A stretch of 13,281 nucleotides of DNA from a virus (lineage: Duplodnaviria > Heunggongvirae > Uroviricota > Caudoviricetes): the IMG/VR virus record IMGVR_UViG_2713896785_000007. The stretch is one strand, 5' to 3'. This document shows positions 521 to 7,052 of this stretch, piece by piece. The translations under genes were made by a program, and so were the position numbers. Numbering within the stretch: the first letter of the stretch is position 1; each line of letters opens with the position of its first letter. Under the pieces are notes generated by a model. It was not told the origin of the DNA, ran no database searches, and worked only from the letters and a program-made list of their open reading frames with translations.

Positions 521-700
521 AATGATAACCATTATCATTTTTGCGGGTCCTCCTGGTGGGGTGGGCCTGAACACGGGGCGGGCGGCGCGGAAAAAGGCGC
601 ATTTTTGTGATTTTATCGTCATCATCATCATGATGGTAACTTGTTGTTTTTAATGCTGTTAGTATTAAAAAGATGATGGTTGTGGTTGTTTTTTGTTCGA
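521..700. other. Putative cos region (cosN-like G-rich element ~571-590, A/T-rich cosB-like segment with lambda-like CGTCAT...TAACTT..TGTTTTTA motif ~617-660)
   Basis: Non-coding stretch ending ~190 bp before the small terminase start, as in lambda. ACACGGGGCGGGCGGCGCGG resembles lambda cosN (ACG|GGGCGGCGACCTCGCGG). Downstream CGTCATCATCATCATGATGGTAACTTGTTGTTTTTAATG resembles lambda cosB CGTCATAACTTAATGTTTTTATTT. Comparison is from memory of the lambda sequence; the exact nick positions cannot be set. Confidence 0.4.
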
Positions 701-775: not shown

Positions 776-1252
776 ATGGACGGCGAGCTGAAAAATATGA
801 AGTTAAATATTAATCAACTGGCAGCCCTTTCAGGTCTGCACCGGCAGACTGTTGCCGCCAGAATGGCGGATGTTCCTCTTGCACCAGGCAGTAATGAAAA
901 GAAAAAACTGTATCTCCTGACGGATTTGATAACTTCGTTGCTGGAAAAACCACCATCTTCCGAAGATGAGGATATGGATCCTCACGCTCGTAAGGCATGG
1001 TATCAGTCCGAGCGCGAGCGTCTTAAATTTCAGCATGAAACTGTTCAGCTTGTGCCAGTCAGTGATGTCAGGCGGTCCTTTTCTGTCGTGGTGAAAGCGA
1101 TAGTTCAGGTACTGGAAACCTGGCCTGACCGGCTGGAGAGGGACAGGGGGTGGACTGCATCACAACTGAATGAAGTACAGATTGTGGTTGATGAGATCCG
1201 CGACACACTGGAAAAGGCAGTCATTGACTGTTGTGATGAGGCCGATATGTGA
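776..1252 (+). CDS. Terminase small subunit (Nu1-position; N-terminal helix-turn-helix DNA-binding protein)
   Basis: 158-aa ORF immediately upstream of, and overlapping, the large terminase start (ATG at 1247-1249, TGA at 1250-1252, GTG at 1249). GGAGGG Shine-Dalgarno 6 nt upstream of the ATG at 776. N-terminal segment NINQLAALSGLHRQTVAARM looks like a helix-turn-helix. Acidic C-terminus. Assignment is by position and architecture, not by sequence identity to lambda Nu1. Confidence 0.75.
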   Translation: MDGELKNMKLNINQLAALSGLHRQTVAARMADVPLAPGSNEKKKLYLLTDLITSLLEKPPSSEDEDMDPHARKAWYQSERERLKFQHETVQLVPVSDVRRSFSVVVKAIVQVLETWPDRLERDRGWTASQLNEVQIVVDEIRDTLEKAVIDCCDEADM

Positions 1253-3372
1253 ATCAGGTGAACGAGAGCCATAGCCGCGCATCCGATATCTGGCGCGAAG
1301 TGGCCTCGCTGTTTCGCCCACCCAGCCGGTTACCAGTAGCGGAAGCCATCAGGCGTTATATGCGGGTTCCACGGGGAGCCAATACTTCCGGTCCGTGGGA
1401 GTCATCGCTGACGCCCTATATGATTGACCCCATTAATACATTATCAGCCCGTGAATATGACGCGGTGGTGTTTGTGGGACCTGCGCGAACCGGGAAAACC
1501 GAAGGGCTGATTGATGGCTGGATTGTGTACGGCATCATCTGTGATCCGGCGGATATGCTGGTGGTGCAGATGACTGAGACGAAGGCGCGTGAGCATTCCA
1601 GAACGCGTCTTTCCAGGACGTTTCGCCACAGTCCGGAGGTCAGCAAGCGCCTCAGTCCTTCCCGTAATGACAACAACGTCCACGATAAAATGTTTCTTGA
1701 CGGCTCCTTCCTGAAGATTGGCTGGCCGTCGATCACCGTCTTTTCCTCTTCGGATTACCGTCGTGTGGCGCTGACGGATTATGACCGTTTCCCTGAAAAC
1801 GTGGACGGGGAAGGGGATGCCTTCACGCTGGCCTCAAAGCGTACCACCACCTTTATGTCTTCGGGGATGACCCTGGTCGAGAGTTCACCGGGGCGGGATA
1901 TCACCGATACCAAATGGCGTTGTGGTGGCGCACATGAGGCACCGCCAACAACGGGGATCCTGTCACTGTATAACCGGGGAGACCGCCGCCGGTGGTACTG
2001 GCCGTGTCCGCACTGCGGGGAATATTTTCAGCCGGTGATGGATAACATGACCGGATACCGGAATAACCCGGATTTTGTGGCTGCCGGTCAGGCTGCCCGT
2101 CTGATGTGTCCGCATTGTCGCGGGCTGATTGCCCCTGAGCAGAAACGCGAACTGAATAACCAGGGGATCTGGCTTCGTGAAGGTGAACGGGCGGCGGCGG
2201 ACGGCAGTATCACCGGAACGCCACGAAACTCCCGGATTGCGTCATTTTGGATGGAGGGGCCAGCTGCGGCGTTTCAGACCTGGGAACAACTGATTTTTAA
2301 ACTGCTGGCGGCAGAAGAAGAGTATGAGCGAACCGGCAGTGAAGAGACCCTGAAAGCGGTGGTGAACACCGATATCGGACGACCCTATCTGCCCCGTTCA
2401 GCCACGGAACAGCGTAAAAGTGAACTGCTTGAACAGCGTGCCGAGCCGTTTCCCCGGCGATCTGTGCCGGATGGTGTGCGTTTTATTGAGGCAACGGTTG
2501 ACGTACAGGGCGGTAAAAATCGCCGTTTTGTTGTGCAGATCACCGGATACGGAGAGCAGGGGGAACGCTGGATTGTTGATCGCTACAACATCCGGCATTC
2601 ACTGCGCTGCAGTCCCAACGGTGAAAGTCTGCCGGTTGATCCGGCGGCATATCCGGAGGACTGGGATTTGTTGCTGACGGATGTGTTCCATAAAACATGG
2701 CCGCTGGCTTCTGATCCGGATGTGCGCATGCGTCTGATGGCCATGGCGGTGGATACGGGAGGGGAAGCCGGGGTGACAGATAACGCCTATCGTTTCTGGC
2801 GTCGTTGCCGGAGTGACGGACTGGGCAACAGGGTGTTTCTGTTCAAGGGGGATGGACTTCGCCGTGACAGGCTGATTAACCGAACCTTCCCGGATAATAC
2901 CGGCAGAAGTGCCCGCCGTGCCAGAGCCAGTGGCGATGTCGCGCTGTGGCTGGTTCAGACGGATGCGTTTAAGGATCGTGTAAATAATGCCCTGTGGCGT
3001 GACACACCAGGGCCGAACTATATCCACTTTCCCGACTGGCTGGGGCGGTGGTTTTACGATGAGCTGACCTATGAAGAGCGCGGCAGTGACGGAAAATGGC
3101 GAAAACCGGGCAGGGGCGCTAACGAAGCGTTTGACCTGCTGGTTTATGCGGATGCGCTTGCCGTTCTGCATGGTTACGAAAAGATCCGCTGGCCCTCCGC
3201 ACCGGACTGGGCACAGCGGGAAACGTGGCTCGTCTTCCCGCAGGAGCGTTCTGGTGAAACGGTATCCCCGGAACTGACGGCCGGGGCAGAAAAACGCCGT
3301 CGCCGGAAGAAAAAACTGCGGACGGAGCGTGCGGAAGATAATCCATGGATAACATCAGGAGGCTGGTTGTGA
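1249..3372 (+). CDS. Terminase large subunit, GpA family (lambda gpA-like)
   Basis: 707-aa ORF. Walker A-like motif VVFVGPARTGKTEG. Paired CPHC motifs (WYWPCPHCGEYF ... LMCPHCRGL) resembling the lambda gpA zinc-ribbon region (ACPHCGEEQ). Basic C-terminal tail. Probable GTG start at 1249 with GAGG 7 nt upstream, overlapping the small-subunit stop. Confidence 0.93.
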   Translation: MNQVNESHSRASDIWREVASLFRPPSRLPVAEAIRRYMRVPRGANTSGPWESSLTPYMIDPINTLSAREYDAVVFVGPARTGKTEGLIDGWIVYGIICDPADMLVVQMTETKAREHSRTRLSRTFRHSPEVSKRLSPSRNDNNVHDKMFLDGSFLKIGWPSITVFSSSDYRRVALTDYDRFPENVDGEGDAFTLASKRTTTFMSSGMTLVESSPGRDITDTKWRCGGAHEAPPTTGILSLYNRGDRRRWYWPCPHCGEYFQPVMDNMTGYRNNPDFVAAGQAARLMCPHCRGLIAPEQKRELNNQGIWLREGERAAADGSITGTPRNSRIASFWMEGPAAAFQTWEQLIFKLLAAEEEYERTGSEETLKAVVNTDIGRPYLPRSATEQRKSELLEQRAEPFPRRSVPDGVRFIEATVDVQGGKNRRFVVQITGYGEQGERWIVDRYNIRHSLRCSPNGESLPVDPAAYPEDWDLLLTDVFHKTWPLASDPDVRMRLMAMAVDTGGEAGVTDNAYRFWRRCRSDGLGNRVFLFKGDGLRRDRLINRTFPDNTGRSARRARASGDVALWLVQTDAFKDRVNNALWRDTPGPNYIHFPDWLGRWFYDELTYEERGSDGKWRKPGRGANEAFDLLVYADALAVLHGYEKIRWPSAPDWAQRETWLVFPQERSGETVSPELTAGAEKRRRRKKKLRTERAEDNPWITSGGWL

Positions 3373-3581
3373 GCACAGAAGAAGCCAGAGAAATGATACA
3401 GCGGTACCGTGAAGCGGAAATGGCCGTACTGGAGGGAAAGTCTGTCACCTTCAACGGGCAGCAACTGACGCTGGAAAGCCTTTCTCAGATCCGCGCCGGA
3501 CGTCAGGAGTGGGAACGCAGGCTTGCCGCGATGGTGAGCCGCAGGCGGGGAAAACCGGGATTTAAACTGGCGAGGTTTTAA
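3369..3581 (+). CDS. W: Head-tail joining protein gpW-like
   Basis: C-terminus RRRGKPGF matches lambda gpW RRRGPAGF. A GTG at 3369 is preceded by AGGAGG (3356-3361), giving a ~70-aa protein equal in length to lambda W (68 aa). The longest ORF would start at the ATG at 3345. Overlaps the terminase stop at 3370-3372. Confidence 0.82.
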   Translation: MSTEEAREMIQRYREAEMAVLEGKSVTFNGQQLTLESLSQIRAGRQEWERRLAAMVSRRRGKPGFKLARF

Positions 3582-5083
3582 TGGCAATTATTGATGATGT
3601 GATCGGCGTGTTTTCCCCTAGGTGGAAAGCAGCCAGACTGCGTTCAAGGGCGTTAATCATGGCCTATGAGGCGGTGAAACCGACCCGGACACATAAAGCC
3701 CGGCGGGAAAATCGCTCTGCTGATCAGCTCAGTAAATACGGTGCGGTTTCCCTGCGGGAGCAGGCCCGTTTTCTGGATATCAATCATGACCTGGTGATTG
3801 GTGTGTTTGACAAGCTGGAAGAGCGGGTGATTGGTGCCAGGGGAATTATTGTGGAGCCTCAGCCATTACGAAAAAACGGGGAAATGGCGGCTGAGCTGGC
3901 TGCGGATATCCGCCGTTTGTGGGCTGAATGGTCCGTGAGTCCGGATGTGACAGGGCAGTATACCCGTCCTGTGCTTGAACGTTTACTGCTGCGGACCTGG
4001 CTGCGGGATGGTGAAGTGTTTGCGCAGATGGTCAGTGGTGCGGGAAACGGTCTGGAACGGACGGCGGGAGTGCCATTCTGGCTTGAGGCGATGGAGCCGG
4101 ATTTTGTTCCCATGCGCACTGATGAATCCGCCGGACTGAATCAGGGGGTTTTTCTTGATGAGTGGGGAAGACCGAAAAAATATCTGGTTTATAAAAATTA
4201 TCCGGTCAGCGGCCGGCAGAGTGATACGAAAGAAATCGCTGCCGGAAAAATGATCCACCTGAAGTTCACTCGTCGTCTGCACCAGACGCGAGGCTCATCC
4301 ATGTTATCGGGGGTGCTGATGCGGATCAGTGCCCTTAAGGAGTATGAGGATGCGGAACTGACAGCGGCGCGTATTGCTGCGGCGCTGGGACTGTATATCC
4401 GTAAAGGTGACGGACAGGACTATGAAGATCCGGGGATCAAAGAAACCGAGCGGGAAGTCCATATCACCCCGGGTATTATTTATGACGATTTGCGCAAGGG
4501 CGAGGATATCGGCATGGTCAAATCTGACCGTCCCAATCCCAACCTTGAAACTTTCCGCAACGGCCAGTTGCGTGCAGTGGCAGCAGGCAGTCGTCTGAGT
4601 TTTTCCAGTGCGGCGCGTAACTATAACGGCACCTACAGCGCCCAGCGGCAGGAGCTGGTCGAGTCCACGGATGGTTACCTGATCCTGCAGGACTGTTTTA
4701 TTGGCGCGGTAACCCGCCCGGTGTACCGGACATGGCTGAATATGGTGGTTGCGGCAGGTCTGCTGAAAATTCCGGCGGATGTGGAGATGAAAACGCTATA
4801 TAACGCGACGTATTCCGGTCCGGTGATGCCGTGGATCGACCCGGTTAAGGAAGCTGAAGCCTGGAGAATTCAGATCCGGGGTGGTGCAGCGACAGAATCT
4901 GACTGGGTGCGTGCCGGCGGGCGCAATCCGGATGAGGTCAAACGTCGCCGCAAGGCTGAAATTGATGAAAACAGCAGACTGGGGCTGGTCTTTGATACGG
5001 ATCCCGTCAACGACAAAGGAGGCAACAGTGCCGGAACTGAACGACAGTATCAGCGCGACACCGAAAGCCAGCATGAAGAATAA
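3581..5083 (+). CDS. B: Portal protein (lambda gpB family)
   Basis: 500-aa ORF in the lambda B position. Start ATG overlaps the W stop (TAATG). Shares recognisable similarity with lambda gpB, including the YEEAE/YEDAE and VxAARIAA region. Confidence 0.93.
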   Translation: MAIIDDVIGVFSPRWKAARLRSRALIMAYEAVKPTRTHKARRENRSADQLSKYGAVSLREQARFLDINHDLVIGVFDKLEERVIGARGIIVEPQPLRKNGEMAAELAADIRRLWAEWSVSPDVTGQYTRPVLERLLLRTWLRDGEVFAQMVSGAGNGLERTAGVPFWLEAMEPDFVPMRTDESAGLNQGVFLDEWGRPKKYLVYKNYPVSGRQSDTKEIAAGKMIHLKFTRRLHQTRGSSMLSGVLMRISALKEYEDAELTAARIAAALGLYIRKGDGQDYEDPGIKETEREVHITPGIIYDDLRKGEDIGMVKSDRPNPNLETFRNGQLRAVAAGSRLSFSSAARNYNGTYSAQRQELVESTDGYLILQDCFIGAVTRPVYRTWLNMVVAAGLLKIPADVEMKTLYNATYSGPVMPWIDPVKEAEAWRIQIRGGAATESDWVRAGGRNPDEVKRRRKAEIDENSRLGLVFDTDPVNDKGGNSAGTERQYQRDTESQHEE

Positions 5084-7052
5084 ATCCTGGTTCAGGATGC
5101 AGGCTGGGGTGCCGGGTGACGCGGATATTTATATTTATGACGAGATTGGTTTCTGGGGAGTTACCGCGAAGCAGTTTGTCAGCGAACTGAATGCTCTGGG
5201 TGATATCACCCACATTAATCTCCATATCAATTCACCGGGTGGCGATGTCTTTGAAGGCATCGCCATTTTTAATGCCCTGAAAAATCAGGGGGCGACCATT
5301 ACCGTGTATGTGGATGGCGTTGCCGCCTCGATGGCATCTGTGATTGCGATGGCCGGTGATACGGTCATTATGCCGGAAAATGCCTTCATGATGATCCATA
5401 AGCCATGGGGATTCAGTGGCGGGGATGCTGAGGATATGCGCAGTTATGCCGATTTGCTGGATAAAGTCGAATCGGTACTGTTGCCAGCCTATGCGCAGAA
5501 AACCGGAAAAACCACCGATGAAATTGCCGCCATGCTGGCGGATGAAACCTGGATGTCCGGTGCCGAATGTCTGGCACACGGATTTGCTGACCAGGTGACA
5601 CCCGCTGTTGAGGCAATGGCATGTATTCAGTCAAAACGTACAGAGGAATTTAAAAAGATGCCGGAATCCATCCGAAACATGATTACTCCGCCACGCAACA
5701 GTGCCCCGCGTGATACCACAGTGACAATCCCTGCACCGGCGGTAACAGAACCATCACCGGTACCGGCAGTGTCTGATGAGGCGACCATTCGCGCCCGCGT
5801 TATGGCAGAACAGAAAGCCCGCATGTCAGGCATTAACGATCTGTTTGCCATGTTCGGCGGTCGCTATCAGACGCTTCAGGCACAGTGCGTGGCTGATCCT
5901 GACTGTTCGCTGGAAATGGCCCGTGAACGACTGCTGAATGAAATGGGCAAGGAGTCCTCGCCGACCAACAAAAATACACCGGCCCATATTTATGCCGGAA
6001 ACGGCAATTTTGTGGGAGACGGGATCCGCCAGGCGATGCTGGCCCGTGCCGGATTTGAAAATGTCGAGAAGGATAACGCCTATAACGGGATGACCCTGCG
6101 TGAATGGGCTCGCATGTCACTGACGGAGCGCGGTATTGGGGTGGCCAGTTATAACCCCATGCAGATGGTCGGGCTGGCGCTGACGCACAGCACCTCTGAT
6201 TTTGGCAATATTCTGCTGGATGTGTCGAACAAGGGGCTGATCCAGGGCTGGGAGGAATCAGAAGAAACCTTCCAGAAGTGGACCCGTAAGGGACGCCTGT
6301 CAGACTTCAAAACAGCGTATCGCGTGGGGATGGGCGGTTTTGGTTCTCTGCGCCAGGTTCGTGAGGGGGCGGAGTATAAATACATCACCACCTCAGATCG
6401 CAAGGAGACCATTGCACTGGCCACTTACGGGGAGATTTTCTCCATCACCCGCCAGGCCATTATCAATGATGATCTGAATATGCTGGTGGACGTGCCGATG
6501 AAGATGGGGCGTGCGGCGAAGGCAACGATTGGTGACCTGGTCTACAAGGTGCTGACGGATAACCCGAAACTGTCCGACGGTAAGGCGCTGTTCCATGCCG
6601 ATCACAAAAATATTGCCACCGGGGGGATCTCCGTTTCCGGACTGGATGCGGCCCGTCAGATGATGCGCCTGCAGAAAGAAGGCGATCGTGCCCTGAATAT
6701 CCGTCCGGCCTTTATGCTGGTACCGGTGGCACTGGAGACGGTGGCGAACCAGACCATCAAATCGGCCAGTGTGAAAGGGGCGGATGCAAACGCCGGTGTC
6801 ATTAACCCTATCCAGAACTTTGCTGAGGTGATTGCAGAAGCGCGTCTTGATGCGGCAGACCCGAAAACCTGGTATCTGGCGGCGGCACAGGGCACTGACA
6901 CCATTGAAGTGGCCTGGCTGGATGGTGTGGACACGCCATACATTGATCAGCAGGAAGGTTTCACCACTGACGGCATTGCCACAAAAATCCGTATTGATGC
7001 CGGAGTGGCACCACTTGACTGGCGCGGGCTGGTGCGTTCGTCGGTGGCCTGA
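5028..7052 (+). CDS. Fusion protein: ClpP-like (S14) serine protease domain + linker/scaffold-like segment + HK97-fold major capsid protein domain
   Basis: Reading frame is open from 4881. Likely start is the GTG at 5028 (AAAGGAGG at 5015-5022) or the ATG at 5073. N-terminal domain carries ClpP-type catalytic motifs (GVAASMASVIAMAG with Ser nucleophile; MMIHKPWG with His). A Pro/Ala/Thr-rich linker follows (~5690-5800). C-terminal ~300 aa occupy the major capsid position. Domain call for the capsid part is by position and size, not by a motif I can name. Confidence 0.88.
   Translation: MPELNDSISATPKASMKNKSWFRMQAGVPGDADIYIYDEIGFWGVTAKQFVSELNALGDITHINLHINSPGGDVFEGIAIFNALKNQGATITVYVDGVAASMASVIAMAGDTVIMPENAFMMIHKPWGFSGGDAEDMRSYADLLDKVESVLLPAYAQKTGKTTDEIAAMLADETWMSGAECLAHGFADQVTPAVEAMACIQSKRTEEFKKMPESIRNMITPPRNSAPRDTTVTIPAPAVTEPSPVPAVSDEATIRARVMAEQKARMSGINDLFAMFGGRYQTLQAQCVADPDCSLEMARERLLNEMGKESSPTNKNTPAHIYAGNGNFVGDGIRQAMLARAGFENVEKDNAYNGMTLREWARMSLTERGIGVASYNPMQMVGLALTHSTSDFGNILLDVSNKGLIQGWEESEETFQKWTRKGRLSDFKTAYRVGMGGFGSLRQVREGAEYKYITTSDRKETIALATYGEIFSITRQAIINDDLNMLVDVPMKMGRAAKATIGDLVYKVLTDNPKLSDGKALFHADHKNIATGGISVSGLDAARQMMRLQKEGDRALNIRPAFMLVPVALETVANQTIKSASVKGADANAGVINPIQNFAEVIAEARLDAADPKTWYLAAAQGTDTIEVAWLDGVDTPYIDQQEGFTTDGIATKIRIDAGVAPLDWRGLVRSSVA

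Follow-up and report, generated by a model that had tools for sequence, protein, structure and literature searches.

Lambda-like phages are defined by 12-base 5′ ends similar to those of lambda (PMC4669245), and the mechanism of the lambda packaging site has been described in terms of cosQ, cosN and a cosB arranged as R3-I1-R2-R1, with R3 at bp 50–65 (PMC9026076). Across the lambda-like phages cosQ is highly conserved, the right half of cosN (bp 7–12) is variable, and Gifsy-1 is listed among the members of the group (PMC4669245). Related phages whose small terminase subunit belongs to the DUF1441 family include cdtI and LLS; the cohesive end of LLS was deduced from the similarity of its large terminase and from the analysis of mEp213 by M. 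Feiss, not from measurement (PMC12315714). We compared these systems with a stretch of 13,281 nucleotides, here called the window, from a Caudoviricetes record of the IMG/VR collection.

The segment of the window at about 545–705 is very probably a lambda-style cos site of a lambdoid (Stx-phage-like) prophage, working as lambda's does. This reading is drawn from homology combined with conserved anatomy, from the adjacent terminase genes and from the ends of related phage records, and on this comparative basis we infer the protein binding, the exact nick positions and the activity of the window's own copy. The site belongs to the DUF1441/gpA terminase group of lambdoid phages, a kind already well known, and by comparison of sequences it appears to be an otherwise ordinary lambda-style cos whose only oddity is a cutting core 2 bp shorter than in almost all relatives. 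A preliminary description had proposed a probable cos site at this place, and the comparative evidence supports that proposal, since cosQ, cosN and cosB of lambda type precede a gpA-family terminase; the description had spotted cosN and cosB and overlooked cosQ and an AT-rich palindrome upstream of it. A cos site here would fix the left end and the packaging origin for a prophage type that is common in pathogenic E. coli genomes, and would be of use in delimiting virion genomes and in predicting which terminase packages which co-resident prophage.

The window runs from lysis genes through the cos stretch to the terminase, portal and head genes. The cos strings are contained in a stretch of ~490 bp without a convincing gene, 3′ of a 74-aa ORF (65–289). 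This stretch is followed on the plus strand by the gene for a small terminase subunit of the DUF1441 family (776–1252; Pfam PF07278, 3.8e-48; PHROG 141 'terminase small subunit', 6e-66) and by that for a large terminase subunit of the lambda gpA family (1249–3372, also plus strand; Pfam GpA_ATPase, 1.8e-81, and GpA_nuclease, 6.2e-84). Beyond these lie an ORF for a lambda-family portal protein (3581–5083) and a ClpP-protease/capsid fusion in a single 723-aa ORF (4881–7052); a prohead-protease/coat fusion of the same type has been described for Gifsy-2-like heads in the paper on LLS (PMC12315714). Over positions 383–800 the window is 95–99% identical to VT1-Sakai and the Stx2 phages, with 98.6% for prophage VT1-Sakai (Sp15 of E. 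coli O157 Sakai) and 95–97% for several Stx2 phages, and it is 100% identical to the chromosome of E. coli 2013C-3264. CP-1639 differs more from the window: it matches only the first 264 nt of this query, at 92% identity, its cosB is of another kind, and its small terminase shares 78% identity. Of 5426 complete E. coli genomes, 1962 contain at least a part of this query, frequently more than once, and 396 cover at least 80% of it.

The heptamer GGGTCCT at 545–551 on the plus strand is identical to lambda cosQ (lambda 48473–48479). In lambda-like cos sites this 7-bp element stands ~23 bp upstream of the top-strand nick; the distance to the predicted nick at the ACG/GGG junction is 24 bp in the window and 23 bp in lambda. 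The pattern GGGTCCT-N21-ACGGGGCGG matched the window once, at 545–581 and with 0 mismatches, against an expectation of about 0.01 matches in dinucleotide shuffles even with 2 mismatches allowed. Pairwise alignment to the lambda cos region, which the preliminary description had put forward as a check, gave a local score of 38 for positions 500–790, compared with 19.1 ± 2.2 (maximum 29) in 1000 shuffles; this tile scored highest of the whole window, and its best-aligned block consists of the AT-rich palindrome and cosQ. Together, the pattern and alignment statistics exclude chance as the source of the lambda resemblance. They also bear out the earlier comparison of a G-rich element to lambda cosN: the element, ACACGGGGCGGGCGGCGCGG, lies exactly at 571–590, and its left half ACG/GGGCGG is identical to that of lambda.

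The AT-rich palindrome is a perfect 9-nt inverted repeat, AAATGATAA-CCA-TTATCATTT, which occupies 520–540 without a defined strand and ends 4 bp upstream of cosQ. The lambda string GATGATAATCATTATCAC aligns with it at an equal distance from cosQ. Many cos regions of the DUF1441 type carry AAATGATAATCATTATC at this position, and the palindrome is conserved in many family loci; it may contribute to the side of cos at which packaging terminates. It may also resemble a Fur box.

Phage PhiR5_1 shares positions 383–551 with the window, up to and including cosQ, at 94–95% identity. Past the shared block PhiR5_1 reads ...GGGTCCTTTCCGGCATATGGACCCGTTACG GGGCGGCGACCT CGCGGGTTTTCGCTATTTATGAAAATTTT, which is the canonical lambda cosQ/cosN, and then continues into Nu1 and A, whereas the window diverges directly after the identical GGGTCCT and reads CCTGGTGGGGTGGGCCTGAACACG GGGCGGGCGGCG CGGAAAAAGG. 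Because PhiR5_1 has a canonical cosN at the homologous spot, the G-rich element of the window fills the cosN slot. More widely, this block of 170 bp is ~94% identical between DUF1441-terminase phages and Nu1/A phages with a true lambda cosN, the latter including PhiR5_1, PhiR12 and many Stx1 phages. Its homology stops exactly at cosQ, so that cos forms a mosaic boundary. The block itself gave no Rfam hit and no folding signal.

A broader comparison was made with 80 loci, which an alignment of DUF1441 small terminases had served to fetch from one-genome-per-species contigs. A shared cos architecture was found upstream of the DUF1441 gene in 69 of the 80, in diverse Gammaproteobacteria from Enterobacterales to Halomonadaceae. 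It begins with a cosQ-like heptamer, followed by a spacer of 21–25 nt whose last four letters are C(A/G)(C/A)G; CGCGG comes next, set off from this flank by exactly 12 nt in 67 of the 69 loci, and the architecture continues with GGAAAA(A/C)GGCTAGTTTT, a CAT/CAC-repeat block and, in a subset, an IHF consensus. The heptamer is GGGTCCT in 36 loci, AGGTACT in 32 and GGGTCCC in one. AGGTACT appears to be a second type of cosQ: it occurs in Proteus, Providencia, Morganella and Buttiauxella, among others, at cosQ's distance from cosN and about 180–260 bp upstream of the small terminase. When 18 representatives were aligned with MAFFT, two further conserved blocks emerged, one inverted and of AAGATGTCGAA type, the other direct and of GTTCA(C/T)CATC type.

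Among phages, a tblastn search with the small terminase matched 56 records. Among them, cdtI, mEp460, mEp213/LLS and yong2 have the layout of the window: cosQ, a G-rich spacer ending in CACG, cosN, CGCGGAAAA(A/C)GGC..TTTTT, (CAT)n at bp ~45, an IHF consensus at bp ~62, an inverted GATG.. block and a direct TTCA.CATC block. Their terminase pairs are homologous to that of the window, with small subunits 50–58% identical. The window departs from them in three respects: it has 2 nt more between cosQ and CACG, its cosB carries a variant set of repeats of its own, and it has 10 nt (GGGCGGGCGG) between CACG and CGCGG where they have exactly 12 (for example GGGCGGCGCGCT, GGGCGGGAGCGT and GGGCGGGAGCGG). 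The cos of Gifsy-1 is probably of the DUF1441 type as well.

We place the cosN core of the window, CG/GGGCGGGCGGCG/CG, at 574–589; it is strandless, and its left half ACG/GGGCGG is found unchanged not only in lambda but also in LLS, cdtI and mEp460. With moderate confidence, we predict that the top strand is nicked between 575 and 576 (N1) and the bottom strand between 587 and 588 (N2). The resulting 5′ cohesive end would be the 12-mer GGGCGGGCGGCG (576–587, plus strand), which is our best guess for the overhang. It shares 7 of 12 nt with lambda GGGCGGCGACCT, six of them filling the left half (6/6), and the flanking ACG is identical too. A 12-nt stagger after ACG keeps CG on both flanks of the 16-bp core CGGGGCGGGCGGCGCG and leaves 10 of its 16 bp rotationally symmetric, the same figure as for the lambda cosN core, compared with 8 of 14 bp for a 10-nt stagger. 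The shorter alternative would place a 10-nt end at 576–585 (plus strand), ahead of the conserved CGCGG, and an overhang of 10–11 nt is possible: the 10 nt between ACG and CGCGG can alternatively be read as 12 nt followed by CGG alone, a right flank unlike the CGCGG of lambda. The distances from nick to R3-like block and from cosQ to CGCGG fit both a 12-nt and a 10-nt overhang within ±1 bp and do not discriminate between them. The caution voiced earlier that the cohesive end may be non-canonical was justified, as the right half of cosN is unlike lambda's and the core lies 2 bp below the family norm. In a full-text literature search with the candidate cohesive-end strings, only unrelated papers were among the matches listed.

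To the right of cosN, a conserved spacer, CGGAAAAAGGCGCATTTTTG (588–607, plus strand), aligns with CGCGG(A/G)AAA(A/C)GGCTAGTTTT in nearly all family loci. The DUF1441 group is marked by a spacer GGAAAA(A/C)GGC..TTTT, a CAT block at bp 44–51 and an IHF site at bp 62–64, and the window correspondingly has GGAAAAAGGCGCATTTTT at 589–606, (CAT)4 from bp 45 and an IHF-like site at bp 62. The R3-like candidate site for the small terminase, GTCATCATCATCAT, includes the (CAT)4 and spans 618–631 on the plus strand (bp 43–56 of the predicted left end), where it matches the family position; the start of the CANCANCAN block in the window, bp 45, falls within the bp 44–51 at which this block starts in 61 of the 69 family loci. 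The putative I1-like IHF site, TAACTTGTTGTTT, lies on the minus strand at 637–649 (bp 62) and differs at 1 position from the complement of the WATCAANNNNTTR consensus; I1 of lambda, TAACTTAATGTTT at bp 74, departs from the consensus at 2 positions. In the family the exact consensus YAANNNNTTGATW occurs on the top strand at bp 62–64 in 19 of 69 loci, and a version with 1 mismatch occurs within bp 46–110 in 18 more. The string CGTCAT...TAACTTGTTGTTTTTAAT that the preliminary description had likened to cosB is indeed present, at 617–654, and aligns with lambda bp 69–97, the part that holds the I1 IHF site, which marks it as the I1 equivalent.

Two further candidate repeats lie beyond the IHF-like site. 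The R2-like repeat GATGATGGT (complement ACCATCATC) is found on the minus strand at 672–680, inverted relative to R3, and aligns with the conserved AAGATGTCGAA block of relatives. The R1-like repeat TTCGACATC is found on the plus strand at 696–704, in direct orientation; relatives have GTTCACCATC or GTTCATCAC at the aligned position, and their R2 block is its reverse complement. It forms an inverted-repeat pair with 666–675 (R2/R1). An independent repeat search returned the inverted repeat 620–640 versus 658–678, corresponding to the R3/R2 pair. The short motif nYCRWCATC accordingly occurs three times, at 618–626, 672–680 and 696–704, as direct, inverted and direct copies at family-conserved positions. 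With the IHF-like site in the place of the bend, these repeats would follow the R3-I1-R2-R1 order of lambda: direct, bend, inverted, direct. The sites so designated are candidates, their assignment as R3, R2 and R1 being based on short repeats. By this assignment, lambda and the window have in common an IHF-like site TAACTT..TGTTTTT between a direct and an inverted repeat, whereas the repeats of the window are of CATC type and unrelated to the R sequences of lambda. Lambda R1 is located around bp 150, and the R1-like repeat of the window, at bp 121–129 by our own assignment, is nearer.

The terminase genes agree with this anatomy. The small terminase gene had been put about 190 bp downstream of the site, and its start codon at 776 is 200 bp past the predicted first base of the cohesive end at 576, compared with 190 bp in lambda; a start 90–200 bp after cosN is what an adjacent gpNu1/gpA-type terminase would show. 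The large subunit (1249–3372) clearly belongs to the gpA family and is the enzyme expected to nick cosN. For the small subunit (776–1252), which is of DUF1441 type, similarity to lambda Nu1 is confined to the level of profile and fold. BLASTP gave no alignment between the two, and in hhalign a shallow small-terminase profile was not significant against Nu1 (probability 2.5%), though colinear over the HTH. The small terminase matches PHROG 57, that of Nu1, at 1.8e-10 over almost its full length, and Nu1 matches PHROG 141 at 5.6e-08. The AlphaFold model of the small terminase (mean pLDDT 76) has an N-terminal strand-helix-helix-wing-helix (winged-HTH) domain, for which the highest-probability PDB match is the gpNu1 DNA-binding domain 1J9I (probability 0.91, with an E-value of 0.28 that is not significant; rmsd 2.7 Å over 53 columns). 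On these reciprocal PHROG cross-hits and the fold match, we consider the small subunit a distant homologue of Nu1.

The ends of related phage records point to the same junction. The record of phage cdtI ends in ...GGGTCCTTCCGGTGGGGTGGCCTGCCACG and begins with GGGCGGGAGCGTCGCGGAAAAAGG, and is therefore cut exactly at the homologous position. That of phage LLS begins there with GGGCGGCGCGCTCGCGGG and is annotated with a '5′ extended single-strand cohesive site GGGCGGCGCGCT'. Both phages encode DUF1441-type small terminases. DNA of Sp15 (VT1-Sakai) has been recovered from DNase-resistant particles (PMC2669165), and the cos region of Sp15, 98.6% identical to that of the window, carries a 16-nt form of the core. 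Phage ASU11 (vB_EcoS_ULI-O80_Stx2d) is infectious, and its particle DNA was sequenced from a Nextera tagmentation library and assembled with Unicycler (PMC9751135). The ASU11 record (ON416862.2) is colinear with CP-1639 except that exactly 44 bp over cosN are missing (...GGGCC[TGAACACGGGGCGGGCGGCGCGGAAAAAGGCGCATTTTTTGATT]TTTATGG). A tagmentation library that had lost the ends of the molecule would give such a gap, which makes it suggestive, not proof, of an end at this place; it could also be a genuine deletion or an artefact of editing. Among the 138 close phage matches to 383–800 none was split at cos, and physical ends were not evident either from where the IMG/VR matches sit in their contigs.

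Two other phage records are also damaged at cos. The record of mEp460_4F5 begins 5 nt before the junction, and its cosN is 3 nt shorter than that of mEp460 itself; we took this for an assembly artefact and did not count it in favour of short cores. In the Ayreon record a piece of the small terminase gene is joined to the spacer in place of cosQ/cosN, and it is uninformative. Like the gap in ASU11, these look like end-of-molecule assembly artefacts.

By analogy with lambda, packaging at this site would proceed as follows. The small terminase (776–1252) would bind the CATC-containing repeats R3 (618–631), R2 (672–680) and R1 (696–704), in direct, inverted and direct orientation, around an IHF-induced bend at 637–649 between R3 and R2. 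The complex of small terminase and IHF would anchor the gpA-type large terminase (1249–3372) on cosN (574–589), where it would make staggered nicks, and the DNA would then be packaged rightwards into the head genes. Packaging would terminate at the next cos of the concatemer and would require cosQ (545–551). The left end of the virion DNA would accordingly be a 5′ overhang starting at 576, most likely the 12-mer GGGCGGGCGGCG.

The length of the core is the feature in which the window stands apart. Spacing between the left flank, C(A/G)(C/A)G, and CGCGG is exactly 12 nt in 67 of the 69 family loci, 10 nt in the STEC lineage of the window and 11 nt in VT1-Sakai. To survey core lengths, we collected 74 matches to the left flank of the window on 72 IMG/VR contig stretches. 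The 15-nt core of the window was found in 51 of the 74, ahead of several distinct kinds of cosB; a further 13 have the form of VT1-Sakai, which carries one additional G (GGGCGGGCGGGCGCGG, 16 nt); six have GGGCGGACGGCGCGG; and other 16-nt forms or a 12-nt form occur in single matches. Measured as distance to the A-run, the lineage of the window has 15, 16 or 12 nt against 17 in the canonical form. The cosN core of the window recurs unchanged in Stx2_112808 and CP-1639. Variation in length between 12, 15 and 16 nt is what a weakly constrained G/C tract prone to slippage would be expected to show.

A core 2 bp short between conserved flanks could impair or alter cutting. We hold it doubtful, yet worth stating, that the cosN of the STEC lineage has lost 1–2 bp of an otherwise fixed 12-bp spacing with the consequence either that the terminase, acting as a molecular ruler, keeps its stagger of 12 nt although the right flank has changed, or that it leaves 10–11-nt ends unable to anneal with those of co-resident lambdoid phages. 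Ends of 10–11 nt, if real, would constitute a natural packaging or annealing barrier and a natural experiment on how gpA-type enzymes set their stagger; in any case the shortened core is a small, testable oddity for studies of terminase nick positioning.

In a more severe form, the shortening would have turned the site into a decayed relic, the 2-bp loss in cosN having inactivated cutting so that packaging from the site is lost or inefficient. This is the alternative to be taken seriously, though we consider it improbable. The constancy of the 12-nt spacing in the family, the coexistence of 12-, 15- and 16-nt variants within the lineage of the window and the severely deleterious effect in lambda of even a 3-bp change in cosN–cosB spacing (PMC9026076) all speak for decay, as does the fact that many STEC prophages are defective, while Sp15 needs help from other prophages (PMC2669165). 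However, the 15-nt form is the majority form, and its retention ahead of several diverged cosB and small-terminase types argues for selection. It is also present in Stx2_112808, the closest relative (98% identity) of an infectious phage (PMC9751135), and Sp15 DNA with the 16-nt form is packaged (PMC2669165). Moreover, a 12-nt stagger on the short core retains the CG/CG flanks and the 10 of 16 symmetric bp, the R3-like block begins at bp 45 from the predicted nick and so inside the family range, and the terminase, portal, head and tail ORFs of the window look intact.

We give far less credence to the idea that the G-rich element is merely coding sequence of a minus-strand protein gene at 743–471. 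Such a gene has been called by PGAP as a 90-aa ORF across cosQ, cosN and cosB, and it is entered in RefSeq as a hypothetical protein (WP_100209512.1). Nevertheless, VT1-Sakai has no gene annotated at the corresponding place between Rz and the terminase genes, 1-nt indels occur inside the ORF among close relatives, and the open frame across cosN is shorter than 80 codons in 39 of 73 related loci. Distant relatives can be aligned only with numerous indels whose lengths are not divisible by three, and yet their short DNA motifs stay fixed. The RefSeq call at 471–743 on the minus strand is thus probably spurious when judged from these alignments, and recognition of the cos site would help to correct a hypothetical protein drawn over it.

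Equally hard to credit is the idea that, in place of a cutting site, the late transcript has a regulatory element or a structured RNA here (a terminator, a promoter, a riboswitch-like leader or a G-quadruplex): four G-runs at 560–582 and one weak promoter-like match on the minus strand would suit it, but searches gave no Rfam match with E ≤ 1 and no terminator-like site, folding energies were no better than those of shuffles (z = +0.35 and +0.62), and what relatives conserve is cosQ, the flanks and the spacing, not the G-runs as runs. Readings as structured RNA, terminator, promoter or DNA hairpin were rejected after these Rfam, site and folding tests. The four G-runs (GGGG T GGG CCTGAACAC GGGG C GGG) cover the cosQ–cosN spacer and the left half of cosN on the top strand and fit a relaxed G-quadruplex motif, which is not kept in more distant relatives.

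Two minor features lie further upstream. The 74-aa ORF at 65–289 sits between the end of Rz and cos and is absent at the corresponding spot in VT1-Sakai; it matches only the middle of PHROG 2571 (positions 100–172 of 291), a family of unknown function, and may be a gene fragment. Positions 333–382 are a run of 50 N, and in the otherwise identical 2013C-3264 the same flanks enclose 24 nt (ATTAACAGAGACCGCAGCCCGACA), so that the run represents a gap or mask of arbitrary length rather than a one-for-one mask.
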